Virus record (IMG/VR): IMGVR_UViG_3300032321_001491
Span: 1-33,805 of that record
From: a virus
Lineage: Duplodnaviria; Caudoviricetes
Length of the DNA: 33,805 bases
Strand: one strand, 5' to 3'
Below the pieces are notes generated by a model. The model was not told the origin of the DNA and ran no database searches. It saw nothing but the letters and a program-made list of their open reading frames with translations. Shown one piece after another: positions 1 through 32,353 of this stretch. The position numbers and the translations under genes were made by a program. Numbering within the stretch: the stretch's first letter is position 1; the number at the start of each line of letters is the position of its first letter.

Positions 1-37
1 AATAATATATAGCTGATATATCACATAGTACATAAGG

Positions 38-88
38 AAAACACCCATTTATAGGCTTATTTTAAGCTTATTTTTGGGTGTTTTTTTT
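38..88 (+). terminator. Probable intrinsic terminator/hairpin in AT-rich non-coding left edge
   Basis: AAAACACCCA...TGGGTGTTTT inverted repeat with inner ATAGGCTTA/TAAGCTTAT, followed by T8. Confidence 0.5.
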
Positions 89-520
89 GTCTTTTTTTCA
101 CTAATTAACTATATTTTTAATAGAAATACGACCAAAATGGTTAACAATTGGGTAAAAAAGCTCATAATTTGAGAAGGTTTTAGATTCCCCTATGTAAATA
201 TCCTATTACTGGATATCTATAAGAATAATACAAACATATTCCCCCTCTTTTAGTTTATATAGGGGCGTAATACTATAACCGATTGATGACCCAGAATATT
301 GACGGGTTGATACATAGATTTAGGAATAGTATAAGTGTTTGATTACACTGATGTAATCTGAGGCGATAGGTAGAGAGATAGGCTAAGTCTTTCCCAGCCC
401 ATTTGATTAACAAAAATAAAATGTGCGTAAACTTTTACCTTCCTCCCTTAGATAAGTATTTATCTATGAGATTTTGGAATACATTTTGAATGCCATATGT
501 AATTTGTTAGTTATGATTAG

Positions 521-633
521 AAATATGTAATAAAGTTAAGCGATAAATAAACTATTTTTTGCGGGTGTACAATAACAAATGCATTTCTTATTGGGACACC
601 CGCCATCTTTATGATTAGAAAATGTATATTAAA
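521..633 (-). repeat. Degenerate repeat unit 0 (no -10, no downstream ORF)
   Basis: AAATATGTAATAAA box 521-534, 43-nt GCGGGTGT...ACACCCGC hairpin 561-603 at the same spacing as other units, second box 621-633. Confidence 0.7.
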
Positions 634-658
634 AATGGTAAAGGTAAGCGTTTAGATA

Positions 659-698
659 GCTGGCGTTCATTGTGCTTTAGCACGGGATGAACGCCAGC
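659..698 (+). repeat. Second hairpin (opposite orientation of the GC-TTTA-GC cap)
   Basis: GCTGGCGTTCAT-tGTGC-TTTA-GCACggg-ATGAACGCCAGC; near-identical copy at 1284-1323. Confidence 0.8.
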
Positions 699-733
699 AA
701 AAAAGAAGCCCCGTACCGAAGTACGGGGCTTCT
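699..733 (-). terminator. Intrinsic terminator cassette 1
   Basis: AGAAGCCCCGTAC-TTCG-GTACGGGGCTTCT plus U-tract on minus strand. Confidence 0.9.
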
Positions 734-754
734 ACACGCCTTACGGGGTAAGGG

Positions 755-1060
755 TTACTTGCGCTTGCCTTTGGCAGGCTTGGCGAGTGAGACTACGCAA
801 CGCCCGTCTGTAGTCCATTGAACGGACACAGCGACATTGTTGCGCTCTGCAATGGTTTCAACACGACCACGATACTTAGCCTTGTGGTTTGTGTAATCCT
901 CATCGTTTGGATTACCCTGTGCGTCATCCCAAATGAATGCGTCACCCTCAACCTTTGGGTCAAGGCTAACAATCTCGGCTTGTAGTGTCTCATCGTGGAA
1001 CGCTTCACGCCCACGCTTGGACAGCATGCCTTGCAGGTCATTGAGGTTTATCTTTGCCAT
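755..1060 (-). CDS. Hypothetical protein, 101 aa, basic C-terminal tail; paralog of 1380-1691
   Basis: ORF with GGGAG SD; about 60% identical to the neighbour by manual alignment. Confidence 0.9.
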   Translation of the reverse strand: MAKINLNDLQGMLSKRGREAFHDETLQAEIVSLDPKVEGDAFIWDDAQGNPNDEDYTNHKAKYRGRVETIAERNNVAVSVQWTTDGRCVVSLAKPAKGKRK

Positions 1061-1123
1061 AGGTATTCTCCCATGTTCAACACTCGGTATGAGTGTGTCT
1101 CGGCGGTATTGCCTTTGACATAA

Positions 1124-1257
1124 ATAAACATACCATTATGGTAAAAATGTGTATTAAAGTGAGTTTCGTATTGGTACCCCAACAGCGGGTGTGCAATTGC
1201 ATCGCTGAAGCGCAATCGCACGCCCGCCATGTGTGCGGAATAGAAATTTGTACTAAA
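1124..1257 (-). promoter_or_regulatory. Repeat unit 1: box + hairpin + box/extended -10 promoter
   Basis: Minus strand TTTAATACACATTTTT-N-ATGGTATGTTTAT (1124-1158); hairpin 1185-1227. Confidence 0.85.
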
Positions 1258-1283
1258 AACAGGAGATATGAGTGTGCTACGGA

Positions 1284-1323
1284 GCTGGCGTTCATTGTGC
1301 TTCAGCACGGGAAGAACGCCAGC
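1284..1323 (+). repeat. Second hairpin, copy 2
   Basis: GCTGGCGTTC-attGTGC-TTCA-GCACgggaa-GAACGCCAGC. Confidence 0.8.
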
Positions 1324-1358
1324 AAAAAAAAGACCCCGTGCCGAAGCACGGGGTCTTT
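1324..1358 (-). terminator. Intrinsic terminator cassette 2
   Basis: AAAGACCCCGTGC-TTCG-GCACGGGGTCTTT plus U-tract. Confidence 0.9.
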
Positions 1359-1379
1359 CACTAACCGCAGGAGATGCGG

Positions 1380-1691
1380 TTACTTGCGCTTGCCCTTGCC
1401 CTTTGCAGGCTTGGCGAGCGAGATAACCATCTGACCAGTGGTGAGCCACTGCACGCTGATGGCTACGCCGTTCTTATCGGCTAGTCCCTCAGCACGCCCA
1501 CGCCACATTGCTTTGTGGTTCGTGTAGTCCTCGCTGGTTGGGTCTCCTTGACTGCCCTCGTAGATGGTTGCATCACCATCTATCGCTGGGTCAAGGCTCA
1601 TGATTTCAGCCTCAAGTTCAGGGTTGTCATACGGGGCTCGCCCACGAGATGATAACTGACCTTTGAGGTCGTTCAGGTTTACCTTTGGCAT
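1380..1691 (-). CDS. Hypothetical protein, 103 aa; paralog of 755-1060
   Basis: ORF with AAGGAG SD; shared EDYTNHKA and SLAKPAKGK motifs. Confidence 0.9.
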   Translation of the reverse strand: MPKVNLNDLKGQLSSRGRAPYDNPELEAEIMSLDPAIDGDATIYEGSQGDPTSEDYTNHKAMWRGRAEGLADKNGVAISVQWLTTGQMVISLAKPAKGKGKRK

Positions 1692-1754
1692 TGCTTATCT
1701 CCTTGGTTATACACACCGCAGTGTGTTGCCTCAGCCTAATCGCTTTGGCATGAG

Positions 1755-1882
1755 ATAACCATACCATTATGATAAAAATATGTATTAAAGGTAGTTGCGT
1801 ATTGGTACCCCAATGGCTGGAGTGCAAATCTTTTGCTAAAGCAGATCCGCACACCAGCGGCAGTGAGAGAATGTGTATTAAA
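1755..1882 (-). promoter_or_regulatory. Repeat unit 2
   Basis: Promoter 1755-1789, hairpin 1816-1858, second box 1870-1882. Confidence 0.85.
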
Positions 1883-1922
1883 CTTAACCAACATGGTCCA
1901 GGGGTGGAGCTGGTGTTCAGAC

Positions 1923-1956
1923 AAAAAAAACTCCCCCCGCCCGAAGGCGAGGGGAG
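1923..1956 (-). terminator. Intrinsic terminator cassette 3
   Basis: CTCCCCTCGCC-TTCG-GGCGGGGGGAG plus U8. Confidence 0.9.
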
Positions 1957-1971
1957 CGGGGGAAGGAACAA

Positions 1972-2238
1972 TCACTCTGGTTGGAAGAGTGTGAGGTAAT
2001 CCATTTCCTCAATGGAGCCCTGAACATCTGTGAACAGTTGCTCAATGTCGCTCAACTTGTCCTGCACTTCGCCAATGAACTCTTGGCGCAGGGCAACCTT
2101 CATGTCAATCACGATGCTGAGCATCTGAGCGTTCATTTCGCCTCTGGTGATGAGGTTGTCTTTCAGTTGCATGGCAACTTTGACAACATCTTCGTGGGCA
2201 ATTGTGAGCGCCCTTGGGTGTGGTGGTAGGTGTGTCAT
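1972..2238 (-). CDS. Hypothetical helical, acidic protein, 88 aa (start MTHLPP)
   Basis: AAGGAG SD before ATG at 2238; the longer ORF-track start lies in the promoter. Confidence 0.85.
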   Translation of the reverse strand: MTHLPPHPRALTIAHEDVVKVAMQLKDNLITRGEMNAQMLSIVIDMKVALRQEFIGEVQDKLSDIEQLFTDVQGSIEEMDYLTLFQPE

Positions 2239-2281
2239 TGCTTTCTCCTTGTCAAGGGGATAGGAAGTGTCCTTGACATCT

Positions 2282-2415
2282 ATAAACATACCATGTCATC
2301 AAAAATGTGTATTCAACGGCATTGAGACCCTGTACCCTTTTCGTTGTCGTACAAATTGTTTGGTAAACCCAATCCGCACGCCAACGATTTCAAGAGAGAG
2401 AGAGCGTACACTCAA
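2282..2415 (-). promoter_or_regulatory. Repeat unit 3
   Basis: Promoter 2282-2316, hairpin 2341-2387 with compensatory GG-TTTA-CC cap. Confidence 0.85.
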
Positions 2416-2457
2416 CATATTGGATATACCTTTGCTATGGCGCTGGTGTTTGGGCAC

Positions 2458-2493
2458 AAAAAAAACCCCCCAAGCCCGTAGGCTTGAGGGGTT
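2458..2493 (-). terminator. Intrinsic terminator cassette 4
   Basis: AACCCCTCAAGCC-TACG-GGCTTGGGGGGTT plus U-tract. Confidence 0.9.
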
Positions 2494-2509
2494 CGCTGGA
2501 GAAGCGACC

Positions 2510-2767
2510 TTATTTCTTGGTGATTACTGGCACTACGAGTTTGCCCTCGGCGTACCAAATCACACCAACTTTCTTTTTTCCTGCAAGGCTGAGGATACGA
2601 GCACGAACACGGTTTTTGTTGGCTATCGTGTTCGGTACTGCCCTTTGTGTTGCGACAATATCACAAGTGTCGCTCACTGCCTTGACGCACTTGGCAAGGT
2701 AATTATCATGAAACTTTGGTCGCCCACGCCTCATTACCTTGACCGAGCCTTTAGGTACTCTACGCAT
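2510..2767 (-). CDS. Hypothetical highly basic protein, 85 aa (start MRRVPK)
   Basis: AAGGAG SD; Arg/Lys-rich, contains RRGRPK (AT-hook-like). Confidence 0.85.
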   Translation of the reverse strand: MRRVPKGSVKVMRRGRPKFHDNYLAKCVKAVSDTCDIVATQRAVPNTIANKNRVRARILSLAGKKKVGVIWYAEGKLVVPVITKK

Positions 2768-2811
2768 TTGCTTTCTCCTTGCCAGCGGGGTTAGGATAAT
2801 CGCTGACATGA

Positions 2812-2944
2812 ATAAACATAACATATCATGAAAAATGTGTATTCAATGTAGTTGAGAGTGTGTACCCCTTCGGCTGGTGCACAAAGCTTTTGCTGAAGCA
2901 GCTCCGTACACCATTCTTTTTGTGTTGTGAGAATATGTATTAAA
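2812..2944 (-). promoter_or_regulatory. Repeat unit 4
   Basis: Promoter 2812-2846, hairpin 2875-2913, second box ending 2944. Confidence 0.85.
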
Positions 2945-2978
2945 GAAAGCATGCCAGGATACGCAATAGGGTCGGAGT

Positions 2979-3010
2979 TTCCCCCTCGCACCCGTAGGCA
3001 CGAGGGGGAA
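2979..3010 (-). terminator. Hairpin terminator cassette 5 (no U-tract on minus strand)
   Basis: TTCCCCCTCGTGCC-TACG-GGTGCGAGGGGGAA directly after the stop. Confidence 0.7.
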
Positions 3011-3013
3011 GTT

Positions 3014-3232
3014 TTATGCTGATTTTGGGAAATTGTACTCTGTCCTGATAGTCTCTATCAGCCTGTCAATTTCCGAGTCAAGGAAACGGTGTATCTTATT
3101 CAGCCTTGCCGAAGTCTCGGACATACCTAGATACCTGCACATTACACTTGCCAGCATGATTCTCTTGCGGGTCTTATCTAGTTCCCTAGATATTTGCAGA
3201 ACCGCCGTTTTGCATTGGTAACGCTTGTCCAT
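3014..3232 (-). CDS. Hypothetical protein, 72 aa (start MDKRYQ)
   Basis: TAATG overlap with upstream ORF, GGAGG SD. Confidence 0.8.
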   Translation of the reverse strand: MDKRYQCKTAVLQISRELDKTRKRIMLASVMCRYLGMSETSARLNKIHRFLDSEIDRLIETIRTEYNFPKSA

Positions 3233-3453
3233 TATTTCGCCTCCGCAAACATCTTGTCCCAACACTCTGAATGGTAGCCATTCATGAGTTGCTCACGCTG
3301 GGCTGGGGTAAGAGTAGGGAAACAATTCTGAATGAGTTCGCCCTGCCAACTAGCCGTCTTGCCAAACTCCCATTCATCACGGGTCATTTGGACCTCGCCC
3401 CAATGCCCACATTCGGGGCAAGTCGGGGTTTGAATAGTAACCATTATTTTCAT
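3232..3453 (-). CDS. Hypothetical Zn-binding protein, 73 aa (CPEC...HSEC)
   Basis: GGAG SD, CxxC and HxxC motifs. Confidence 0.85.
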   Translation of the reverse strand: MKIMVTIQTPTCPECGHWGEVQMTRDEWEFGKTASWQGELIQNCFPTLTPAQREQLMNGYHSECWDKMFAEAK

Positions 3454-3493
3454 TGCTATCTCCAATCTGTCCTAGCCCGTTGCTAGGAACAAG

Positions 3494-3626
3494 ATAACCA
3501 TACCATCTGATGGAAAATGTGTATTAAAGAGAGTTGATAGTGTGTACCCCATTGACTGGTGTACAAATCTTTCGCTGAAGCAGCTTCGCACACCACCGTT
3601 CTTGTGTGATGAGAATGTGTATTAAA
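3494..3626 (-). promoter_or_regulatory. Repeat unit 5
   Basis: Promoter 3494-3528, hairpin 3557-3595, second box ending 3626. Confidence 0.85.
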
Positions 3627-3666
3627 GATAAAGGGTATGGTCATGTGAGAACGCTGGTGTTTAGGC

Positions 3667-3703
3667 AAAAAAAAACCCCCCAAGCCTTTCGGCTCAGGGG
3701 GTT
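3667..3703 (-). terminator. Intrinsic terminator cassette 6
   Basis: AACCCCCTGAGCC-GAAA-GGCTTGGGGGGTT plus U-tract. Confidence 0.9.
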
Positions 3704-3728
3704 CGTTTGTTTGGGGGGTGATATGTGC

Positions 3729-3965
3729 TTAGGCTTGAGGTCGGGTGACGGTAATTCCCAATTCCTCAGCGAGGGCTTTGGCTTCTTGGTTCTTCTTGGC
3801 TATTGCTTCCTCGTAACCCTTGAGCATCATTGCCAAGCCCTGAATGCCTTTCGTGTTGCCCTGCTGGGTAGCACGGTTGAGTGCGCCTGCAACAACCATG
3901 AATTGTTGTTCCAGTGTCAGTCTTGCGACTGGGTGGTTTGGACTAACTTCTGTCCGCTTTTTCAT
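3729..3965 (-). CDS. Hypothetical helical protein, 78 aa
   Basis: GGGAG SD; ORF fills the space between promoter and terminator. Confidence 0.85.
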   Translation of the reverse strand: MKKRTEVSPNHPVARLTLEQQFMVVAGALNRATQQGNTKGIQGLAMMLKGYEEAIAKKNQEAKALAEELGITVTRPQA

Positions 3966-4008
3966 TGCTATCTCCCTGTCAAGGTGTTAGGGAGTGTCCT
4001 TGACATAG

Positions 4009-4140
4009 ATAACCATACCATCTGATTAAAAATGTGTATTCAACTTAGTTGACAGTGTGTACCCCACAAGCTGGCGTACAATGCTTTGGCTAAAGCAGCC
4101 TTGCACACCATCGCAAGGCGATAAAGAAATGTATATTAAA
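4009..4140 (-). promoter_or_regulatory. Repeat unit 6
   Basis: Promoter 4009-4043, hairpin 4072-4110, second box ending 4140. Confidence 0.85.
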
Positions 4141-4174
4141 AGAGAGACATGTGTAGGTGCTGAAGGGTCGGGGT

Positions 4175-4202
4175 TCTCCCCCCGCCCGTAGGCGAGGGGA
4201 GA
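4175..4202 (-). terminator. Hairpin terminator cassette 7 (no U-tract)
   Basis: TCTCCCCTCGCC-TACG-GGCGGGGGGAGA after the stop. Confidence 0.7.
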
Positions 4203-4207
4203 TGGTA

Positions 4208-4489
4208 TCACTCGTAGATACGATACCTGTCCTGTTGCTTCTCCAAGACATGAGCCTGACGGTACTTGTCAAACACTTCGCACCAAACTTTTGCGAGTGT
4301 CAATGAGCCTGCAACGAAGCGCTCTACCGAGTGCAACATTTTGCCGTTCTCATCAGTGACATAGCACCAAGCCATGTAGTTTCCAGAACCGTCAAAAGCC
4401 TTGTAGACTTCGTACATATGCCAATATGTCCAAGCGTACTCGGCAGTGCCGTTTCTTACCCACTTCATAGTGACTAAAGGAGTGGTCAT
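4208..4489 (-). CDS. Hypothetical aromatic-rich protein, 93 aa
   Basis: GAAAGGA SD; fills the cassette. Confidence 0.85.
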   Translation of the reverse strand: MTTPLVTMKWVRNGTAEYAWTYWHMYEVYKAFDGSGNYMAWCYVTDENGKMLHSVERFVAGSLTLAKVWCEVFDKYRQAHVLEKQQDRYRIYE

Positions 4490-4531
4490 GAGGTTATCCT
4501 TTCTATCGGGGTTAGGTGTGTTCCGATGTCA

Positions 4532-4665
4532 ATAACCATACCATGTGAGGAAAAATGTGTATTCAATCTCGTTCATGCTCTGATCCTCAACAGTTGGTGT
4601 GCAATTGCTATGCTGAAGCGCTCTTGCCCACCACCCGACCGAGTGTGTGTTGAGAGTGTATTAAA
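4532..4665 (-). promoter_or_regulatory. Repeat unit 7
   Basis: Promoter 4532-4566, hairpin 4595-4633, second box ending 4665. Confidence 0.85.
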
Positions 4666-4705
4666 AACTATTGGCATAGGCATGGAGTCGGGCGGGTGTT
4701 GAGAC

Positions 4706-4751
4706 AAAAAAAAGAACCCCAAGCGCCTCAGGGGGGAGGCACTTGGGGTTC
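4706..4751 (-). terminator. Intrinsic terminator cassette 8
   Basis: GAACCCCAAGTGCCTC...GAGGCGCTTGGGGTTC plus U8. Confidence 0.9.
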
Positions 4752-4765
4752 GGGTTAGGTGCTTG

Positions 4766-4849
4766 TTATAAGCCAACCACGCATTGGAATATCATCCAAG
4801 CGAGGCAAGCGAACACAATGTACGCACCAATTTCAGGCAGGCGCTTCAT
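4766..4849 (-). CDS. Small membrane peptide, 27 aa (MKRLPEIGAYIVFACLAWMIFQCVVGL); not in ORF track
   Basis: ATGA overlap with the upstream stop; single hydrophobic helix; ends just before the terminator. Confidence 0.65.
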   Translation of the reverse strand: MKRLPEIGAYIVFACLAWMIFQCVVGL

Positions 4850-5073
4850 TGAGATACCAGCCTGTATTCCAGCACCTCGTAGAAGTTACCTGACGGGTGA
4901 TACTGGGCATTGACGGTAATCTCAACGATACCACCGTCAAGTTTGAGCCTGAACACTTGGTATGCCCAAGTGTCGTCAACCTCAACGGGGATAGTGTTGG
5001 ATAGGATAAGGTTCAGTGCACGCTTGCCGAGCAAGGCACGCTGAGCCGTTTCGCTTGTGTCTATGGTAGCCAT
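4846..5073 (-). CDS. Hypothetical protein, 75 aa (start MATIDT)
   Basis: GAGGA SD before ATG at 5073. Confidence 0.85.
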   Translation of the reverse strand: MATIDTSETAQRALLGKRALNLILSNTIPVEVDDTWAYQVFRLKLDGGIVEITVNAQYHPSGNFYEVLEYRLVSQ

Positions 5074-5110
5074 AGTTTCCTCTCTGTCTCGGCGGGTTGC
5101 CTTGACTGAT

Positions 5111-5239
5111 ATAACCATACCATACGATAGAAAATGTGTATTCAACCTCGTTGATATGATGAACCCCATTGCCTGGTGTACAATTGCTTTGCTGAAGCGC
5201 CCTTGCCCACCATCGCATGTGTGAAGTGAGTGCATTCAA
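5111..5239 (-). promoter_or_regulatory. Repeat unit 8
   Basis: Promoter 5111-5145, hairpin 5174-5212, second box ending 5239. Confidence 0.85.
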
Positions 5240-5280
5240 AGAGAAGAAACTCCGTGTGCAGATGAGTCGGAGTTCAGGGC

Positions 5281-5324
5281 AAAAAAAAAGCCCCCAAGCC
5301 TCGGAGGGTGAGGCTTGAGGGCTT
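5281..5324 (-). terminator. Intrinsic terminator cassette 9
   Basis: AAGCCCTCAAGCCTC...GAGGCTTGGGGGCTT plus U-tract. Confidence 0.9.
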
Positions 5325-5341
5325 GTCGGGGCATTGAGTTA

Positions 5342-5629
5342 CTAGAACTCTATTGGTGCTTCAATTGCTGGTATCTGCACTGCGTTGCGATGTTCTTGCA
5401 TCGCACGCTGGTCGGCTTCCAAGCCGTACTGAATCATTTGCGCACGATGGTCGCAATCTTGCACCATGCGTGTCAGATGTTCAGCGGTTCGGTTCCAACC
5501 GCTTGCTCTGCAGTATGCGCTTGCGTTTGTGAAACGCAAAGCGGTGTTCTGCAGTTGCTCTACCAAGTTTGCAACCATTCGTGGAATGTTGTCTCGCTCG
5601 GTTTCGCTGGGTGTTTGATAATGTGCCAT
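5342..5629 (-). CDS. Hypothetical helical protein, 95 aa (start MAHYQT)
   Basis: GGAGGT SD before ATG at 5629. Confidence 0.85.
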   Translation of the reverse strand: MAHYQTPSETERDNIPRMVANLVEQLQNTALRFTNASAYCRASGWNRTAEHLTRMVQDCDHRAQMIQYGLEADQRAMQEHRNAVQIPAIEAPIEF

Positions 5630-5687
5630 GATGAACCTCCAGTTCATTTGTTGTTGGCGTTTGTGTTTATCGTTCACCCCGACAAGA

Positions 5688-5790
5688 ACAACCATACCAT
5701 CTGGAAGAAAATGTGTATTCAATCTTGTTCAAGCTCGCATCCCCAATCACTGGTGTACAATTCTTTTGCTGAAGCAGAATCGCACTCCAG
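5688..5790 (-). promoter_or_regulatory. Repeat unit 9 (first in transcription order)
   Basis: Promoter 5688-5722, hairpin 5750-5790. Confidence 0.85.
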
Positions 5791-5921
5791 CGATTGACCC
5801 TAGTCAACACAGGTATTTCGTATGCGGCTAAAAACAAAAGTAACATTCATAAAATATATACTCAAATTTTGGATAGGAAGGTTCAAGGCGGGTATAGGAG
5901 TATAAAAGTTTGGGGGAGAAT

Positions 5922-6011
5922 AAAAAAGACCGCTAGAGATGCACATGCCCCTGGGGGTTAAGCCCAGAGGCATCTGCACCTATAACGGTCCTAAGGTTAG
6001 CTTTCGCTGCC
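5922..6011 (-). ncRNA. Putative ~90-nt structured RNA with segment antisense to 23S rRNA
   Basis: TATACT -10 at 6018-6023, GAAA-tetraloop mini-hairpin, ~26-bp G-U-containing stem, U6 tail; 5980-5997 matches the 23S/I-CeuI site sequence. Confidence 0.6.
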
Positions 6012-7499: not shown

Positions 7500-7684
7500 T
7501 CCATCCCCTTGAATTCAGGAAAATATTTTTCAACAGCCCTTTCCCGACTAATCCCAAAATCAGCACACCACTGTTTAAGTAAACCATTGGCGATATCCCG
7601 CCATCTATCCCGTTCCGCCTCCAGCTGCTTGATTTCGTTAAAAGTCTCTTTGTCCATTTTAATTATTCTATTTTTATCCATCAC
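7496..7684 (-). CDS. Hypothetical protein, ~62 aa
   Basis: Coupled to both flanking ORFs; contains the LEAERDRWR coiled motif common in phage proteins. Confidence 0.7.
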   Translation of the reverse strand: MMDKNRIIKMDKETFNEIKQLEAERDRWRDIANGLLKQWCADFGISRERAVEKYFPEFKGME

Positions 7685-8238
7685 AATACTTTAAAGTCTA
7701 CATTAAGTATAAACCTAAATGGATTCTTAACAGGATTAGACGCAGCGTGGATTTGGCTACCATCAAAAATTACAGCACGACCTTTTTTCGGATAAACCTC
7801 ATCAGTGACTCTGTATGACTCATCAAAGAAATATGTGGGACCATCTGATGGGTTAATATAGTAAAGCAAAACTTTATGATTAACTGGATCTCCATTATCA
7901 TACTGAAGATCAATGTGAGGAACTTGATGCTCATAGTTCATCATTGGTGGATAGGGAAAAGTCAAATTCACTTTAGCCCTGATCAACTCAATTTTGCCAA
8001 ATTCAATTTCAAGTTTTTTTGTAAACTTCCTGATAACTGGAAGATGTGGTGATGCTTTATCTGATTCTGATTCGTAAAGATGATGTGACATCTGCAGCGG
8101 AGCATGTGTCCACCTTTGCGCTACCTCGCTTGAGAAGCGATGGCTACGAAACAAACGATAAGGAAAATTTTCAGTACTGACATATTCCTCAAAGTCCTCC
8201 TGTTCTTGTTGTGTAATGAAGTTGTCTATAATTTTCAT
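7681..8238 (-). CDS. 2OG-Fe(II) oxygenase (start MKIIDNF)
   Basis: PHID...LLYYINPSDGPT...HAASNP...R; the ORF-track N-terminal extension is the tRNA. Confidence 0.88.
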   Translation of the reverse strand: MKIIDNFITQQEQEDFEEYVSTENFPYRLFRSHRFSSEVAQRWTHAPLQMSHHLYESESDKASPHLPVIRKFTKKLEIEFGKIELIRAKVNLTFPYPPMMNYEHQVPHIDLQYDNGDPVNHKVLLYYINPSDGPTYFFDESYRVTDEVYPKKGRAVIFDGSQIHAASNPVKNPFRFILNVDFKVL

Positions 8239-8313
8239 GGCTGGCGAGGTAGGGCTTGAACCTACGACCCAGGGATTAACAGTCCCTTGCTCTGCCAACT
8301 GAGCTACTCGCCA
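8238..8313 (-). tRNA. tRNA-Asn (GTT), encoded CCA
   Basis: TGGCGAG acceptor, GCTCAGTTGGCAGAGC D arm, AGGGA-CTGTTAA-TCCCT, GTAGG-TTCAAGC-CCTAC, GCCA end; 76 nt. Confidence 0.96.
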
Positions 8314-8322
8314 TCGTACTAC

Positions 8323-8403
8323 TTACTTTAGCAGCAAAATAGCAATTGTGATTGCATGAAGCGTAAAATAAATTGCGTGTGTAATTTTATCTTGTTTTGA
8401 CAC
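8323..8403 (-). CDS. Small hydrophobic peptide, 26 aa (MSKQDKITHAIYFTLHAITIAILLLK); not in ORF track
   Basis: GTG start with GAAAGGA SD; fills the gap between oxygenase and tRNA. Confidence 0.55.
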   Translation of the reverse strand: MSKQDKITHAIYFTLHAITIAILLLK

Positions 8404-8405
8404 TT

Positions 8406-9074
8406 TTATCCTTTCTTAATTGGAGTATTCCAAACTTCAATTAAATTTTGTTTTTTTCTTTCTAAATCTTCTGGAGTATTGTAACTAGGAAATGTCCCTG
8501 GATTTTTTTCAATTGGGAGCATAAAGTTTGAATATGCGTAACGAATGCCAGATGTGACTTCCTTTACGCCATGCTCACAATCGGTATGAGCCCCATGAAT
8601 AACAAGATCTCCTGGCTGCACTGCATATTCTAAACCTAGCCTTGGGTAGTATGTTTCACCACCAGTAAATTCTCCAAAATAAACAACTAGCCCATAATGA
8701 ATAATACAGCAAGTATTCCATCTATCAAGCTGAGTCAACTCCTCTTCCATCCCCTCGCCTGGGCTATCTTGGTGCAAAAACATTCCACCATCTCCAGGTC
8801 TAATGACTTGAAGAGCCAGATTGGGATGAATTATATATTCTGGAGCAATCAAATCGCTTGCTGAATTCCATATGTCAATTAAATGAGGGATAAGCGGGGT
8901 AGTCTTATCTCTATACCAATCAACTTTTGCATACTGTTCTCTTAAATAAGTTTTTTCTTTTGTATATTCTTTAATAACTATATTAATTTGTTCAACTTTT
9001 TCTTTTGGTATAAAATTTTTATAAACAAAAACTTTATCTGCTAGTTTTGTAATGCCTGGGTGGTCAAAGAACAT
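8406..9074 (-). CDS. 2OG-Fe(II) oxygenase, prolyl-4-hydroxylase-like
   Basis: HQD...FTGGETYYP...PGDLVIH...HGVKEVTSGIRY. Confidence 0.9.
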   Translation of the reverse strand: MFFDHPGITKLADKVFVYKNFIPKEKVEQINIVIKEYTKEKTYLREQYAKVDWYRDKTTPLIPHLIDIWNSASDLIAPEYIIHPNLALQVIRPGDGGMFLHQDSPGEGMEEELTQLDRWNTCCIIHYGLVVYFGEFTGGETYYPRLGLEYAVQPGDLVIHGAHTDCEHGVKEVTSGIRYAYSNFMLPIEKNPGTFPSYNTPEDLERKKQNLIEVWNTPIKKG

Positions 9075-21190: not shown

Positions 21191-23569
21191 ATGTCAGATT
21201 TTAATATTTCATTCCCAATTGATATGATTAAGAGGGAACAACGCATTGTTGTAGGCATCGCTACAGCCGACAATGTTGATAAAGCTGGCGATATTGTGGA
21301 CTTTGAAGCATCCAAAGAAGCTTTTGCAAACTGGGGTGGAAACATCCGAGAGATGCATGCTCCTATTGCCGTTGGTAAGGCAATTAATTATGAGCCAGTC
21401 GTGCTTAAAGATAAAGATGGTGTATCTTATAATGCTTTTAAAGTTGAAGCTTATATTTCAAAAGGTGCAGAAGATACTTGGCAAAAAGTTCTTGATGGCA
21501 CACTTCGTTCTTTTTCTATTGGCGGTAAAGTAATTGAAAAATCTGAATCCGCAGATAAATTTTTTCATGGTAAGCCAGTTAATGTTATTAAAAAATATGT
21601 TCTTGGAGAGCTAAGCCTCGTTGATAACCCAGCAAACGCTTTGGCTATTATTGATATTATTAAAATGGATGGAGAAGGGTTGTTTAAGTATGCTCTTGAT
21701 TGCGACTTAGATTGCCAGTTAGCAAAGGCTAAACAACCGCTCAAAGACCCCAAAGGCGGGCTGACTGCTGCAGGTAGAAGGCATTTTAAACAAACTGAAG
21801 GTGCTAATCTTAAGCCAGGCGTTAAAGGTGCAGCCGACACTCCAGAAAAAATGCGCCGCAAAGGTTCATTCCTTACAAGATTTTTTACCAACCCGTCTGG
21901 TCCAATGAAAAAACCAAATGGTGAACCAACACGCCTTGCGCTTTCAGCAGCAGCATGGGGTGAACCTGTTCCTCAGAATGCATCAGATGCTGCAAAGCTT
22001 GCTGCTAAAGGCAGAAGACTTCTTGAGAGATATGCAAATACTAAAGAAAAAGCAGATTTTGAAAATTCATTTGAAGACGCTCTTCTTGAAGAAATTATTG
22101 ATCTTTTGAAAGATGATGATTGTGATTGTGGGTGTGGTGGTCTTGAAAAAGATGCATCAGTTACAACTGACAACGCTGAATCAAAAAATCCATCAAGAAA
22201 TGGAATCATTTCACCAACTGTTCCTCCATTCCCATCTGGTTCGCCAAAATTTAAACCAAAGAAAAAAATAAAAAAAGAAGGAAGTCCATGTTGGGATGGC
22301 TATCACCAAGAAGGTGAAAAGAAAGGTAAGAATGGAAATATGGTTCCAAACTGTGTTCCTGATAATACTAACAAAAAGGAGAAAGACATGAAAGGACAAG
22401 ATCTTATTAACAAAGCAACAGGTCTCGTTCCAACCCTCCAGGAGTTGTTGGCAAACACAGTTGTGTTTTATTTTGCAGCCCACAGAGCACATTGGAATGT
22501 TGAGGGCGTTGATTTTACAGAATACCACGAATTATTTGCAAAAATTTATGAAGATGCTTATGGATCAATTGACCCAATGGCTGAGCTTATTAGAAAAATG
22601 GGAGCATTCCCGCCATCGCTAGACGAATCAGATGACATGTCCAGTATTGAAGATGATTCAGCAACATCAGATTCTAGAGAACTTGCTATTGATCTTTATG
22701 TAAAAAATCATGGTTTGATCACAATGCTCAAAGCCGCATTTAATGTAGCAAACTCGGAAAATGAACAAGGTGTTGCTAATTTTATTGCAGAAAGAATTGA
22801 TATGCATCAAACATGGGATTGGCAATTGACAGCTTCTTTAAGAGCATCTGGTGTAGAAATCCCATCACTCATTGAAGATACTGATGAGACTGACATGGAA
22901 AATGCTGGGAGTATTATGAATTTGATTAATCAAGTTTTTGCTAATTCAACAAAATCATATGATTCAACACAAAATATTGAAGAATTTGATACAATTAGTA
23001 AAATGAACGAAAACGAAGAAGTTATTATTAAGCAAGACTCTGAATTGCAATTAAATAATACTTATGATAAGCTCTCTGACATGAATGAGCAACAAGTCAA
23101 TAAACTTAATCTTTTGAAGAAGTTTGTTGGTTGGTTGTTCCAAGATGTCGCAGAAACAACTTCAACTTCCGTTGAAGTAAGTGGAAACACACAGGAGGAA
23201 GAAATGGACATTAATGTTCTTAAAGATGCTCTGAGTGCTGTTGTTGATGAAAAACTGGCTAGTTTTGCTACTTCAATCAAGGAAGAAGTTGAAGCCTCTG
23301 TTCAGGAAAAAATTGAAGCAGTCGCAAAGGGTTTTGAGGTTCAGAGTTCTGAACTTCAACAAAAGCTGGAAACAGCAGAGTTGGCTCTCGCTGAGCAAAC
23401 AGAAAAAGTTGAGGCATTTGCCGCAGCTGGTGCTGTAAAAAAGAGCGTGGACCCAGAAGATGATGAGGAAGTAGCAGAGGAAGCACTAGCTAAGTCTGCA
23501 CCTACTTCATTCTGGAGAAATACATATCTGCCACAGGAGTTAATCAACTCCCTAGGTTATAGGTCATAA
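21191..23569 (+). CDS. Prohead protease fused to DUF6321-like domain, Dps/ferritin domain and C-terminal scaffold
   Basis: N-terminal IREMH...FSIGG...ELSLVDNPAN; KDPKGGLTAAGR; HWNVEG..F...HELF...YE...D..AE.I (Dps); acidic coiled-coil C-terminus; lies just before the capsid gene. Confidence 0.88.
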   Translation: MSDFNISFPIDMIKREQRIVVGIATADNVDKAGDIVDFEASKEAFANWGGNIREMHAPIAVGKAINYEPVVLKDKDGVSYNAFKVEAYISKGAEDTWQKVLDGTLRSFSIGGKVIEKSESADKFFHGKPVNVIKKYVLGELSLVDNPANALAIIDIIKMDGEGLFKYALDCDLDCQLAKAKQPLKDPKGGLTAAGRRHFKQTEGANLKPGVKGAADTPEKMRRKGSFLTRFFTNPSGPMKKPNGEPTRLALSAAAWGEPVPQNASDAAKLAAKGRRLLERYANTKEKADFENSFEDALLEEIIDLLKDDDCDCGCGGLEKDASVTTDNAESKNPSRNGIISPTVPPFPSGSPKFKPKKKIKKEGSPCWDGYHQEGEKKGKNGNMVPNCVPDNTNKKEKDMKGQDLINKATGLVPTLQELLANTVVFYFAAHRAHWNVEGVDFTEYHELFAKIYEDAYGSIDPMAELIRKMGAFPPSLDESDDMSSIEDDSATSDSRELAIDLYVKNHGLITMLKAAFNVANSENEQGVANFIAERIDMHQTWDWQLTASLRASGVEIPSLIEDTDETDMENAGSIMNLINQVFANSTKSYDSTQNIEEFDTISKMNENEEVIIKQDSELQLNNTYDKLSDMNEQQVNKLNLLKKFVGWLFQDVAETTSTSVEVSGNTQEEEMDINVLKDALSAVVDEKLASFATSIKEEVEASVQEKIEAVAKGFEVQSSELQQKLETAELALAEQTEKVEAFAAAGAVKKSVDPEDDEEVAEEALAKSAPTSFWRNTYLPQELINSLGYRS
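23045..23073 (+). promoter_or_regulatory. Internal promoter inside the protease gene
   Basis: TTGCAA-N17-TAAGCT with TG extension; in-frame ATG 7 nt later (23081). Confidence 0.55.
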
Positions 23570-28522: not shown

Positions 28523-29317
28523 ATGAAGTTTAAAGAACTTTACCCCAAGGTGCTTGTCTATCAAGACCTACTGCCAGAGCCAGATCGTTTGTATCAAATA
28601 GTAAAGGATTCCGAGCGTGACGCTGATGGAAGGTTTTATTTGAGAAAGTGGGATAAATGGTCTGTTTTTGGGACATACTCTCAAGAAAAGCATGAAGATA
28701 GTGAGCATTATGAACCAAGAGAATTTGGTGAAAGATATGACGATGAAAAATATCTAGCAGATTGTGTAATTGAAGCTTACTCTAAAGCAATTAATCACTA
28801 TGTAGATAAACATAATGTGTCCGTTCCAGAAGGTGGTAGATTGATGACATCTTCTTTTTCAAAATACGACAGTGATTTAGATGTTTTAAAAAATGGTATG
28901 ACAATGCCGTACCACACTGATTTCATTATTTCAGAAAGAGCAATGCCAGGAAATAAATTTTTTCTTACATGCACTACATATATCAATGATGATTATGATG
29001 GTGGAGATATTTGTTTTTATATCAATGGTGATTTTATTAATTATAAACCAAAAGCTGGCGATATTCTTGTATTCCCATCTGGACTTCCTTATTATCACGG
29101 AGTAAAAACTATTAAAAATGGAAACAAATTTTTTATAAGAAACTTTATACAGTACCCATTTAATGGGACAAAAGAGTGGTTAGCAAAGCAAAGAGAGTTT
29201 GGAGCGCCAAGGTGGGCGGACAAAGAAAGGGATAGGCTTGCTTATGAAAATCCAAGAAATATGTTATATGTTTATAACAATGAAATTATTTCTTATGATG
29301 ATCTTCTTAAGAAGTGA
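28523..29317 (+). CDS. 2OG-Fe(II) oxygenase, prolyl-4-hydroxylase-like
   Basis: YHTD...YINDDYDGGDI...KPKAGDILVFPS...YHGV. Confidence 0.92.
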   Translation: MKFKELYPKVLVYQDLLPEPDRLYQIVKDSERDADGRFYLRKWDKWSVFGTYSQEKHEDSEHYEPREFGERYDDEKYLADCVIEAYSKAINHYVDKHNVSVPEGGRLMTSSFSKYDSDLDVLKNGMTMPYHTDFIISERAMPGNKFFLTCTTYINDDYDGGDICFYINGDFINYKPKAGDILVFPSGLPYYHGVKTIKNGNKFFIRNFIQYPFNGTKEWLAKQREFGAPRWADKERDRLAYENPRNMLYVYNNEIISYDDLLKK

Positions 29318-29972
29318 ACTCTTCAATTGTATAAAAAGAAGGTATAACCCATCGCTCTCCAGAGAGAACTGGAGTAACTCCATGAAGGTATTCAATATCT
29401 CCTGGGTGAAATACAGCTAGTCCAGGTTTTGGAGAAACTTTAATCCCGTGTTTTGGATAAAATAATTCTCCACCAATAAAATTATCATTGAGATAAAATA
29501 ATGAGTTAATGTCGTAATCAATAAAGGCATTTGGTCTTCCATCTTGAACTTGTTTATCGGCATGTGGAACTTGAAAATCTCCAGCTCTCCAGCAAACAAT
29601 AACTGGTGGTCTTTTTCTTAAGCGAACTTTAAATTTTTTTTCCAAAACTAATTGCATTTTTTCAATATAATAATCAATTAAATTAAATATATTAATATCT
29701 AATTCTTTAATTAACTCTGCACTACATGTTCTGTTATACCATAAATCAGAACTGTATTTTGAAACACCATCTTCATGTTCTTGAGATTCATTTGAATTAT
29801 CCCATTTATTTATTTTTTTAACAAAATTACTTAATTTTTCTAAATCTTCTGGTGTAATAAACTCATCTATATTTCCCATATTTTCTAATGAGTTACCAAA
29901 ATACCCAGGGGGTACTCTCCAAGGTTGTTCCTTATTTAAATCATCATAACTTAATGGGTATTTGTTGTTCAT
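29307..29972 (-). CDS. 2OG-Fe(II) oxygenase, prolyl-4-hydroxylase-like
   Basis: PHAD...YLNDNFIGGELFYP...LHGVTPVLSGERW. Confidence 0.92.
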   Translation of the reverse strand: MNNKYPLSYDDLNKEQPWRVPPGYFGNSLENMGNIDEFITPEDLEKLSNFVKKINKWDNSNESQEHEDGVSKYSSDLWYNRTCSAELIKELDINIFNLIDYYIEKMQLVLEKKFKVRLRKRPPVIVCWRAGDFQVPHADKQVQDGRPNAFIDYDINSLFYLNDNFIGGELFYPKHGIKVSPKPGLAVFHPGDIEYLHGVTPVLSGERWVIPSFYTIEEFTS

Positions 29973-30024
29973 GTTACCGTTCTTTATGTTATAATCAGTC
30001 TATCACAATAGACAAAAGGATTTT

Positions 30025-30777
30025 ATGCAAGCACAGTATATTTTTGATCCAAGGGTTGGAATTATCCTCTATAAAGATGCAGTGCCAAACCCCCATGAAA
30101 TTATAGATGAACTTGAAGAAACTATCGGTAATAGCACAACAGAATATTACAAATGGTCATCAGCGACTGTTGGCAATCTTGAAACAATTAATGGCTACAG
30201 AGAATGTTCTGATTGCAAAATAAACGCAAGTTTAGCAAATAATGCACCAGATTCTTTTTCTGGGATAAAAAATGTATACGAAAAAACTACAGAGTCATTA
30301 AGAGAATGCCTTTATGACTATGAATCTAGATTCAACATAAAAATGGATTTTATGGAAAGCGTTAATTATGTGAAGTATGGTGCTGGTAATTTCTTCAAAC
30401 CACACGCAGATCATGGTTTTTCATACACCGCAACAGTATCTTCTGTTATGTATTTAAATGACAATTATGAAGGTGGTGAATTATACTTTCCTACATTTAA
30501 TTTTAAAATTAAACCAAAAGCTGGAGATGTAATTATGTTTCCATCAACTTTTATTTACACTCATGGCTCTGATGTTGTTACTTCTGGCGTTAAGTATTCA
30601 GCAGTAACTATGTTTGATTATAATGAAAGAAACCATAAAGGTTTTCAGTATGGTTTTAACTTAGATGGCTCCCCAGCCGACCCAGATGCTGGTCGGGGTA
30701 TCCGATTCCCTAACGGAAGATTCTTGTCACAACTTGTTCCTTTAGAACAGGGTTATGACTTTTCAAGGTATAGTTAG
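30025..30777 (+). CDS. 2OG-Fe(II) oxygenase, prolyl-4-hydroxylase-like
   Basis: PHAD...YLNDNYEGGELYF...THGS...GVKY. Confidence 0.92.
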   Translation: MQAQYIFDPRVGIILYKDAVPNPHEIIDELEETIGNSTTEYYKWSSATVGNLETINGYRECSDCKINASLANNAPDSFSGIKNVYEKTTESLRECLYDYESRFNIKMDFMESVNYVKYGAGNFFKPHADHGFSYTATVSSVMYLNDNYEGGELYFPTFNFKIKPKAGDVIMFPSTFIYTHGSDVVTSGVKYSAVTMFDYNERNHKGFQYGFNLDGSPADPDAGRGIRFPNGRFLSQLVPLEQGYDFSRYS

Positions 30778-30780
30778 TAT

Positions 30781-31497
30781 ATGACAAAAATTACGCTCTC
30801 TAGAACATTGCAAACTCCAGCCCTAATTAAACAATCACGACTTAAGCGTGATTGGATGGATGCCACTTATAACAAACATGCGTATCAATGTACTCCTGTA
30901 ACAACAGCAAATGTTAATGGGTGGGAGATGCTGCTGCCAGAAGATGTTACTGTTATTTGGGATGGAGGCAATTCTCCTGCGCAAATCATTAACGGTGGTG
31001 TTCACAATGGTTGGAATTTTGCTCATTCAAATATTAATGGGATGATTTCTTTTGCTACTGGTTGGGTAATTAATACAGAAAGTCCTTATCATCTTTGGAC
31101 AACTGGATCACCAAATTATTATGTTGATGGAGCTGTGCCGATGACAGCGACTATTCCTAGTGATTGGTGGGCGGATGAGGTTCAAACGAATTGGGTTATT
31201 ACAAAAGTAAATGAGCCAGTCACTTTTAAGAAAGGTGAGCCATTTTTGTTCTTTACTATATATGATCCAAACTTACTGCCAAGTGTAGAATTTGAAACTA
31301 TTAATAGATGGGATTTCCCAGAGATCGTTGCTCAAAGAGCAGAGTATAATGATTTGAAGATTAAAAATTCCAAAGAAAATCCCTGGACATGGCTGAAGGG
31401 ACTGAGGACTGGTCGTGGCGCTAAGGGTGAGCAAATTGGTCCAAAATATCCAGGATTGCCAAAACTTAAGGAGCCAGAAATTAATGATGCAATATAA
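30781..31497 (+). CDS. DUF6065-like protein
   Basis: KRDWMD...HAY.C.P...AN..GW, TGSPN, I.SDW, F.KGEPF pattern. Confidence 0.7.
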   Translation: MTKITLSRTLQTPALIKQSRLKRDWMDATYNKHAYQCTPVTTANVNGWEMLLPEDVTVIWDGGNSPAQIINGGVHNGWNFAHSNINGMISFATGWVINTESPYHLWTTGSPNYYVDGAVPMTATIPSDWWADEVQTNWVITKVNEPVTFKKGEPFLFFTIYDPNLLPSVEFETINRWDFPEIVAQRAEYNDLKIKNSKENPWTWLKGLRTGRGAKGEQIGPKYPGLPKLKEPEINDAI

Positions 31498-32341
31498 TGA
31501 TGTAAAGGCAAATCACCTTGGTGGCGGTGTTGTCCTTTTTGAAAATACTTTTGATATGGATTGGGATTGGATTTTTAATTTTTTTAAAAAAAATGTTGAT
31601 CAAGAATCTGAAGGGATGTATACCCCAGTAAAACACCCGCATACTGGTGAAGAAGCTTATGTGAATAGAAGTGGGTATTTCTTTGATAAGAAATCCATTG
31701 AGGAAATGCCAAGTCGGAGTATGGCTTTGCATCGTGATCCAGATATGCAAGCAATTAAAACAATGGCTTTTATTGAAGAAGTTAAATATCAATGTTTATT
31801 AAAATATATGGAAATTTTCCCTCTTGTTTACAAATGCATTTGGTGGAAATCAAAAGGTCATATTTCTTATTACAAGAAGGGTATGTATCTCGGTCCCCAC
31901 TCCGATGTGAGCAGTGATTACATTTATGGTGTGCCAGAGCCAGCAAATCAGTTAGCGTTGAAAAATGTTCTTGGCACGATTGTTTATGTAACTGATGATT
32001 TTATTGGTGGTGAGCATTATTTTGATTATCTTGATATTAAATATAAGCCTAAGAAGGGAGATATTTTGATGTTCCCTGCAAACTACATGGCTGCTCACCG
32101 TGTTCTCCCAGTTGAAGATGGAGATCGTTATGCATATCTTGGGTGGTATTGTCATGGGAGTCCTAGTAAGGAGCTCAATGAGATTGTATTTGATCCACTA
32201 AAAGACCCAGACGCAGCGATTAATCGTGAAAATCTTTATATGCCTTTTTTAAGGCAAGACTTTCAAAAATATCTGCTATCACAAGGGCATGATGAAAAAT
32301 CATACGCTTATTCAATTACTGTAAACATGGAACAGGTTTGA
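31484..32341 (+). CDS. 2OG-Fe(II) oxygenase, prolyl-4-hydroxylase-like
   Basis: PHSD...DDFIGGEHYF...AHRVLPVEDGDRY. Confidence 0.9.
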   Translation: MMQYNDVKANHLGGGVVLFENTFDMDWDWIFNFFKKNVDQESEGMYTPVKHPHTGEEAYVNRSGYFFDKKSIEEMPSRSMALHRDPDMQAIKTMAFIEEVKYQCLLKYMEIFPLVYKCIWWKSKGHISYYKKGMYLGPHSDVSSDYIYGVPEPANQLALKNVLGTIVYVTDDFIGGEHYFDYLDIKYKPKKGDILMFPANYMAAHRVLPVEDGDRYAYLGWYCHGSPSKELNEIVFDPLKDPDAAINRENLYMPFLRQDFQKYLLSQGHDEKSYAYSITVNMEQV

Positions 32342-32353
32342 TATAATAACACT

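Follow-up and report, generated by a model that had tools for sequence, protein, structure and literature searches.

A polar bipartite DNA module with a fixed spacer recurs among the small early-type genes of an uncultured lake phage

A short bipartite DNA module, consisting of an AT-rich box followed after 26 nt by a GG-N-GY core, was found in 19 copies near the left end of IMG/VR virus record IMGVR_UViG_3300032321_001491 (positions 1 to 33,805; this whole stretch of 33,805 nt is referred to as the window). The spacer was fixed and all copies had a single orientation; they were located in the gaps between small early-type genes, the promoters of which lacked a −35 element and carried the −10 element at a fixed distance from the box. 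Our tentative reading, with a probability of about 0.45, is that the module may be a polar site contacted at two points by one complex acting on early transcription, probably as an activator where the box has replaced the −35 element. Judged by its sequence, the source is an uncultured lake phage, a freshwater relative of the Streptomyces cluster BE phages.

All 19 copies lay on the plus strand between positions 522 and 5791, with a spacer of 26 nt in 18 of them and of 25 nt in one. Ten were left members (proximal copies and one orphan) and nine were right, distal members (Table 1). The 12 box-to-arm coordinate pairs listed in the first-pass annotation, which was made from the sequence alone, were all correct (11 with the 26-nt spacer, and 633 to 659 with 25 nt), and its estimate of about 19 copies proved exact, with the left member ending at 5722 lying past the range it had given. 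The invariant part of the module was A(C/T)T(A/C)AA ... GG-N-G(T/C), and GCTGGTGT was the left arm of the module's own inverted repeat. A loose pattern, fitted after the copies were known, matched 19 times in positions 1 to 6000, compared to a mean of 0.245 (maximum 2) in 200 dinucleotide shuffles. In the whole window it matched 21 times, compared to 1.56 (maximum 6), so the extra matches at 9625 and 16791 were at chance level. A strict pattern gave 4 matches, compared to 0 in 100 shuffles. In GTDB, the strict pattern gave seven single matches in unrelated taxa; a second viral scan added single matches (L098, L101, L106, L108, L112, L116, L123, L129, and L136) and no arrays, and the module was not enriched in four candidate host genomes (15 matches versus 6 in the control, both strands). 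In relatives, solitary copies occurred outside the array.

The length of the spacer was conserved across relatives. In IMG/VR contigs with the gap left free from 16 to 36 nt, 7 of 8 matched at 26 nt and one at 27. Nine arrays showed spacers of 26 nt (77 copies), 27 nt (28), and 25 nt (5), with other offsets occurring at most six times each. In a metagenome survey covering 87 of 91 loci, 31 of the 34 unique matches from multi-copy loci fell at 26 nt (16 to 36 allowed), compared to a scatter among 24 single matches, and in array-like loci the core stood 26 nt from the box at 121 of 132 boxes. The box drifted by clade, and the spacer and hairpin sequences differed among relatives as well. Only the distance from the box to the left arm was held, because the length of the hairpin (38 to 44 nt) and the gap between the two copies of one unit (93 to 114 nt) varied. 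These data support a protein site of fixed geometry with two contacts, as far as can be judged from sequence; they establish the fixed length, and a phasing of both contacts on the same face of the helix would go beyond that. Nonconservation of the spacing in homologous arrays had been named in advance as one observation that would refute such a site, and the reverse was found. Of the helical-phase-dependent binding proposed at the same time, the two-contact geometry stands, but the two copies of a unit are out of phase at 93 to 114 nt, so the tandem is not one phased complex. The clade-specific combination of box and spacer (26 or 27 nt) fits a coevolving phage protein.

The spacer had been described as poorly conserved, which is accurate for the distal copies (37% pairwise identity) and less so for the proximal ones (55%), in which position 20 was C in 47 of 49 unique copies. 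A guide-RNA function of the spacer was rejected, given that the proximal spacers are related to each other. In a segment-by-segment comparison of strains, switches were spread over leader, spacer, gap, and terminator in the pattern of homologous exchange. Gene content at the units differed among relatives, distal segments were exchanged as blocks, and some units of relatives had no distal copy.

The array genes run leftward, each with its own −10 element and ribosome site and mostly with its own terminator. In five arrays, a TAnnnT element stood at a distance of 20 or 21 nt from TT(G/T)A(A/G)T, the hexamer of the box, in 40/40 proximal copies and in 0/19 distal or orphan copies. None of the 40 proximal promoters carried TTG at a spacer of 16 to 18 nt, as a sigma70-type −35 element would require, and an extended −10 was present in 22 of them. 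Since none has a −35 element and 18 also lack the extended −10, the proximal promoters likely need a helper. By sequence, the proximal box takes the place of the −35 element in this lineage. The first-pass annotation had placed the box in the promoter, and a −10 is indeed close by at the proximal copies, but the −10 elements and the genes are on the minus strand. Its statement that only one copy per unit has a −10 applies to nine units; the 534/633 pair has none, which leaves nine such copies and not ten. RNA contigs of two studies both ended at 1103, approximately 17 nt short of the predicted u0 start, and DNA contigs continued; this is a weak hint of a leftward u0 promoter. The RNA-library contigs X18 and X19 covered array genes and not the modules, except for one low-depth piece extending about 30 nt past a terminator; as contigs are unable to demonstrate absence, they were not used as evidence. 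Promoter calls of the TTGACA type on the plus strand near gene starts were rejected, as they correspond to the hairpin with which the leftward mRNAs begin and show no constant −10. A variable 5′ hairpin was predicted by eye at window 1081-1121 and at the equivalent place in each unit, opening the leftward mRNA before the ribosome site. On the plus strand at window 486-517, TTGAAT, 20 nt, and TATGAT reproduce the geometry of the leftward promoters and point into the orphan module; this arrangement was found only here and partly in L005.

In a different clade, the module was separate from the promoter. G014 had one module with a perfect hairpin per unit, and five other arrays of its clade had ordinary promoter calls for some modules only, at scattered distances. 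Because the distances vary in this clade, the module is probably a unit in its own right that became fused to promoters in the lineage of the window.

The second half of the module was the left arm of a 38- to 44-nt inverted repeat with compensatory changes. Two full forms were distinguished, namely, type A in the proximal copies (43 nt, with mismatches and a bulge) and type B in the distal copies of the two or three units farthest to the left (39 to 41 nt, a type A fold with reversed interior). The box of type B lies on the same side and at the same distance as in type A despite this reversal. The remaining distal copies had only the GG-N-GY core, running into the terminator. In type A copies (48 unique, six arrays), the outer 13 positions comprised 454 Watson-Crick pairs and 90 others, with 68 G.T pairs on the minus strand versus 12 on the plus strand. 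Two-sided changes amounted to 44 cells versus 16.7 after shuffling (23 sequences) and to 31 versus 9.7 (18 sequences), with 0/500 shuffles reaching the observed value in each case; as the structures were drawn from these same, related sequences, relatedness inflates the test, and 0/500 is not a probability. Type A folded better on the minus strand in 42/48 copies with DNA energies and in 45/48 with RNA energies. Type B folded better on the plus strand in 13/16 with DNA energies, and in only 9 versus 6 with RNA energies. On this comparative evidence the hairpin is real. In Rfam, the module matched no family at the gathering score, giving sub-threshold terminator-type matches only.

Outside the array, hairpin-less or degenerate copies were found in G001, G002, G004, G005, and G007, where they shared the genome strand of the array modules. 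They sit in gaps between rightward small genes, mostly with the box 10 to 60 nt past a stop codon. The best-conserved solitary site was retained in 27 unique sequences, located each time after a homolog of 54 to 100% identity. Five further genomes gave strand splits of 8:1, 9:1, 4:0, 12:1, and 4:0, that is, 37/40, compared to 3 matches in the control; the 40 matches include 4 inside ORFs that are probably due to chance and one site counted twice, and the count is weakened further in that solitary loci may have been copied from each other. Copies were found only beside small early-type genes and none over the structural and replication half. In G002, two copies had the core 18 to 19 nt before an ATG with the ribosome site between, and in G015 a tRNA-like gene followed the core at a distance of about 22 nt. 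Downstream of the core at the best-conserved solitary site, neither a TAnnnT nor a purine start was constant, and the next clear gene was approximately 270 to 400 nt away. Two places before this site in G001, at L141:4751-5098, and in its homologs, a core-genome gene resembled by eye a distant relative of the array gene u0; a profile search did not detect it.

The phage affiliation was based on several features. The capsid protein encoded in the window was 53 to 54% identical to capsids of Streptomyces cluster BE phages, and 301 capsid relatives were found in IMG/VR. The gene order of the window, with leftward small genes, glycosyltransferase, and ribonucleotide reductase, equals that of the left end of phage Jay2Jay, which has a terminal repeat of 10.8 kb containing small leftward genes (PMC5764925). 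The host is likely an actinobacterium, and probably one of the abundant freshwater actinobacteria. WhiB genes were present in 9/10 relatives, and the bacterial loci found with one phage WhiB (n = 5) were all actinobacterial; the best four of these five were of the freshwater acIV/Ilumatobacteraceae type (41 to 45%), a weak hint at the host. The GC content was 48% in the array and 37% in the rest of the window; cluster BE terminal repeats are likewise described as richer in GC and as carrying a gene for an RGR-bearing Lsr2 (PMC8612146). Three assemblies have their start within approximately 40 nt of the first window position, namely, the window itself, L005, and one contig from run X5, and the array is therefore likely situated at the left genome end. 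The synteny with Jay2Jay and the common contig start suggest that the array is likely an early region within the terminal repeat that is transcribed leftward.

Candidate binders are the RGR-motif paralogs of the array, two phage WhiB proteins, a MerR-type helix-turn-helix (HTH) protein, or a host factor. The RGR-motif paralogs were the only universal genes of the array, and the RG(R/K) motif was present in 31/31 aligned sequences of the u0 family. The model of u0 had a pLDDT of 83, and in a fold comparison bearing on a binder of the Lsr2/AT-hook or winged-helix type the best VIA row had Z 5.8 (rmsd 2.8, 59 aligned), with R3H-like and winged-helix rows at Z 3.5 to 4.9. No PDB match for u0 was obtained at E ≤ 0.001, and a further search matched one uncharacterized phage protein; ESM Atlas matches were under 0.9 and without names, and Pfam and PHROGs gave nothing. 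In the near-complete relative G001, the 99 ORFs included WhiB, the MerR-type HTH protein, RecA, RuvC, DnaE, DnaG, DnaB, single-stranded DNA-binding protein (SSB), exonucleases, and terminase. No RNA polymerase or recombinase, including serine recombinase, was matched among these 99 ORFs, where remote homologs could escape. Among five near-complete relatives, sigma region 2 was found in 0/5 and region 4 in 1/5 below the threshold, and tyrosine integrase PF00589 and Y1 transposase PF01797 in 0/5 each, which bears on integron-type and HUH (Y1/RAYT) hairpin sites; a host might supply either enzyme. The recombinase plus accessory protein put forward in the first-pass annotation consequently found no cognate enzyme.

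According to the activator-site reading, one predicted protein complex would span the box and the GG-N-GY core and, once bound, would activate the leftward promoters in place of the −35 element. The stand-alone copy beside a terminator or stop codon may be the older form, and the promoter-fused copy its duplicate. With the optional second arm, the GG-N-GY duplex could form again within a hairpin or cruciform, which for type A would be on the minus strand and for type B on the plus strand; half-sites without a hairpin keep the spacing, so a double-stranded left arm would suffice. The presence of u0 RGR paralogs in an array of 48% GC, resembling BE terminal repeats with their RGR-bearing Lsr2, was counted for this reading. 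The earlier suggestion of an activator plus RNA polymerase fits the lineage of the window, with its missing −35 and fixed box-to−10 distance, but not the G014 clade or the solitary copies. Several observations weigh against the activator site. All nine G014 modules (9/9) lie 35 to 212 nt from ordinary TTG-N17-TAnnnT promoters, with no fixed activator geometry, and 7 full-length homologous loci of 65 have no solitary site (8 of the 65 being too short). The direction from module to next gene is opposite in the arm and in the array; a plain activator would be expected to face its promoter the same way throughout. The first genes to enter the cell cannot rely on their own products without leaky expression or a virion or host factor. 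The covariation and strand bias of the hairpin require a folded state, which a protein binding duplex DNA does not, and the constant genome polarity is left unexplained. Polarity and folded arm would both be explained by a processing landmark or by a rightward promoter.

The landmark, in which we have limited belief, would be a polar signal for DNA processing that starts at one end, in the form of entry, end protection, priming, or formation of the terminal repeat, with the hairpin re-creating the GG-N-GY duplex in DNA that is single stranded or extruded and the overlap with promoters being secondary. It would account for one genome orientation whatever the local gene direction, for the highest density of modules at the presumed left genome end, for the compensatory pairing and strand-specific folding of types A and B, and for the variable promoter distance in G014, but it sits poorly with the restriction of copies to early-type genes, the lack of Y1 nuclease or integrase in the five relatives, and the absence of the full hairpin from most distal and all solitary copies, and the common descent of solitary loci and the inflated shuffle test reduce its support. 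A more elaborate version, somewhat more doubtful still, would have a phage machine read the module in both double-stranded and hairpin form. With one or two modules per gene in the terminal repeat that enters first, and one every 6 to 12 kb in the early arm next to it, the module would steer a process with a direction, be it DNA entry, end protection, or priming, and would have been co-opted in one lineage to replace the −35 of early promoters. It is improbable that the module is an unusual rightward promoter, with the box upstream and GG-N-GY near the start, where solitary copies would drive right-arm genes and array copies would give short or antisense RNA shutting off the leftward early genes. 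The uniform orientation would follow directly, and the short gaps between codirectional genes with the box right behind the stop codon, as well as the sites in G002 and G015, are in agreement; the failure to find sigma region 2 in the five relatives (region 4 in one, below the threshold) or an RNA polymerase among the 99 ORFs of G001, the lack of a constant start after the core with the next gene so far off, and the poor folding of type A hairpins on the strand that would be transcribed speak against it.

Two further explanations appear very unlikely. A site-specific recombination site (att, attC-, or REP-like) moving gene cassettes would suit a bulged hairpin in two opposite polarities and the differing gene content at units, but no match to a tyrosine recombinase, Y1 transposase, or serine recombinase was found in the relatives searched, switches are scattered and not at one base, no gene is inverted, and the phages encode RecA, RuvC, and exonucleases of their own. 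Equally poor is the prospect that the second copy has no function of its own and is a leftover from a duplication, maintained through gene conversion in an array of cassettes resembling the promoter-early stem-loop type. Distal copies are missing from some units in relatives, and distal boxes and arms are more degenerate and swapped as blocks, as expected of a relic; against this, the spacer is near random in sequence yet held in length, which the neighboring gap is not, and solitary copies are retained far from any array.

Repeated promoter and terminator units around small variable genes are known as promoter-early stem-loop (PeSL) cassettes in T4-type phages, where an ordinary −35/−10 promoter and a stem-loop that is a terminator, at variable places, are described (PMC2839356). 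The array shares this organization, as well as the gain and loss of genes at shared sequence with crossovers not at one base. In contrast to PeSL as described there, a second, nonterminator hairpin is tied to the box by a fixed spacer, twice per unit, and the module also functions in half-site form and is found again beyond the array, in a single orientation along the genome; sigma70-consensus −35/−10 promoters were found in 0/40 cases here and in 9/9 in G014. The array would thus work like PeSL cassettes within a BE-type terminal repeat, with the addition of a fixed-spacer module that is absent from that PeSL description. Cluster BE terminal repeats, represented by Jay2Jay, are similar in gene order, higher GC, an RGR-bearing small gene, and per-gene promoters with an upstream dyad. 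Unlike those of the array, the Jay2Jay promoters carry a canonical −35 (spacing, 17 nt) with a short dyad 13 to 33 nt beyond it, and the box/GG-N-GY module gave 0 matches in 11 kb of Jay2Jay. The terminal-repeat promoters of Jay2Jay (L095, 3285-9950) have one −10 in common, along with a TGTCCG dyad upstream, at 13 to 33 nt.

At WhiA/WhiB promoters, two proteins touch the −35 region and an upstream asymmetric motif, with a WhiA motif GACAC at variable spacing on either strand (PMC10243135). The two contacts and the WhiB genes of the phage group (9/10) are comparable; the sequence here, in contrast, is ACNCC, rarely with G before it, and does not match GACAC, and spacing and strand are fixed. 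The injection-stop region of T5 comprises repeats and inverted repeats in the long terminal repeat, in one noncoding cluster with DnaA boxes of consensus TT(A/T)TNCACA (bioRxiv 10.1101/866236). Unlike that cluster, the array has one or two modules per gene. The module box, which reads TAATACACA or GAATACACA on the minus strand, departs from that DnaA consensus at the second position in all copies, and its CACA part varies among copies and clades.

T4 middle promoters, with the MotA box and AsiA, and MerR-type long-spacer promoters also have a box over the −35 region at a fixed distance from the −10, comparable to the 20 to 21 nt from hexamer to −10 in the array. They are not known to have an upstream second element or promoterless copies, and the array in turn has no spacer-centered dyad. 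A hairpin promoter of the N4 type or a phage-sigma promoter differs in that no phage RNA polymerase or sigma factor was found in the relatives searched, where remote homologs could be overlooked. The consensus sequences of sigma54, IHF, dif, and the stress sigma factor, compared by eye, did not fit. Literature searches, with supplements and most subscription journals outside their coverage, found no description of such an element. These phages are common in lake metagenomes, and early-gene control and DNA entry in phages with long terminal repeats (T5, SPO1, and cluster BE) are an old question. Because the site is short, countable, and polar and occurs naturally in half-site, full-hairpin, and flipped-hairpin forms, it offers a ready set of substrates for finding the binder and for weighing activation against a directional DNA process.

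The features of the array are listed in Table 1. Each of the seven T-run terminators adjoins a distal module, and two units have a GC hairpin without T-run.

Table 1. Modules, terminators, and selected genes of the array (window coordinates)
Feature	Coordinates	Strand	Box end	Description
Orphan module, left end	522-603	+	534	Box 522-534, 26-nt spacer, inverted repeat of 43 nt at 561-603; lacks both −10 and gene; same in 4 relatives
Distal module, type B	621-698	+	633	Box, 25 nt, 40-nt hairpin 659-698, interior flipped relative to type A
Proximal module, type A	1146-1227	+	1158	Box and 26-nt spacer, then imperfect hairpin of 43 nt (1185-1227); −10 on minus strand 1127-1132
Distal module, type B	1245-1323	+	1257	Full flipped hairpin 1284-1323
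Proximal module, type A	1777-1858	+	1789	−10 on minus strand 1758-1763
Distal half-site	1870-1918	+	1882	Box, 26 nt, GG-N-GT only, then terminator
Proximal module, type A	2304-2385	+	2316	Compensatory inner stem (GG/CC, TTG/CAA); −10 on minus strand 2285-2290
Distal half-site, degenerate box	2403-2451	+	2415	
Proximal module, type A	2834-2915	+	2846	−10 on minus strand 2815-2820
Distal half-site	2932-2980	+	2944	
Proximal module, type A	3516-3597	+	3528	−10 on minus strand 3497-3502
Distal half-site	3614-3662	+	3626	
Proximal module, type A	4031-4112	+	4043	−10 on minus strand 4012-4017
Distal half-site	4128-4176	+	4140	
Proximal module, type A	4554-4635	+	4566	−10 on minus strand 4535-4540
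Distal half-site	4653-4701	+	4665	
Proximal module, type A	5133-5214	+	5145	−10 on minus strand 5114-5119
Distal half-site, degenerate box	5227-5275	+	5239	
Last proximal module, type A	5710-5791	+	5722	−10 on minus strand 5691-5696
Right-end box	5853-5865	+		No arm at 26 nt, GC-rich motif at 22 nt instead; retained in relatives
Seven intrinsic-terminator-like hairpins with T-runs	733-704, 1359-1328, 1957-1930, 2494-2463, 3704-3673, 4751-4714, 5324-5288	−		End leftward genes
Array gene u0	755-1060	−		RGR-motif family, paralogs in every relative's array examined; candidate binder
Array gene u1	1380-1691	−		Paralog of u0, 60% identity
Array gene u3	2510-2767	−		Distant u0 paralog, 25% identity

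Contig joints that could suggest minicircles had low likeness and may stem from other strains. The motif CATAATTTGA was found near the left end at window 163-172, in L002 at 3795-4235, and in L263, ahead of some boxes. In a different clade (L143 8000-14700, that is, G004; L152, G005; L167 500-8600, G007; and L263, G014), the arrays were saturated with a short palindrome, also inside genes, with 30 copies in G004, 36 copies of a different palindrome in G007, and none in 20-kb control stretches or in the window. The same palindrome-bearing arrays contained small K/A-rich genes.

Just right of the array, an 18-base stretch at window 5980-5997 corresponded to a near-universal piece of bacterial 23S rRNA, being identical to approximately 59,000 GTDB stretches and assigned to large-subunit (LSU) rRNA by Rfam. 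It was retained exactly or with one change in L001, L002, L010, L013, L143, L152, L262, and L270, and lies antisense in the 3′ region of a leftward zinc-ribbon gene. We take it to be the region of 23S helix 69-70 and a homing-endonuclease target. Further to the right, the prohead protease gene at window 21191-23569 is interrupted near its middle by an insertion that matches a DNA-binding PHROG and is likely an intein endonuclease, and a run of 2OG-Fe(II) oxygenase-like genes, one of them on the opposite strand, occupies window 28523-33629 and 7681-9074.

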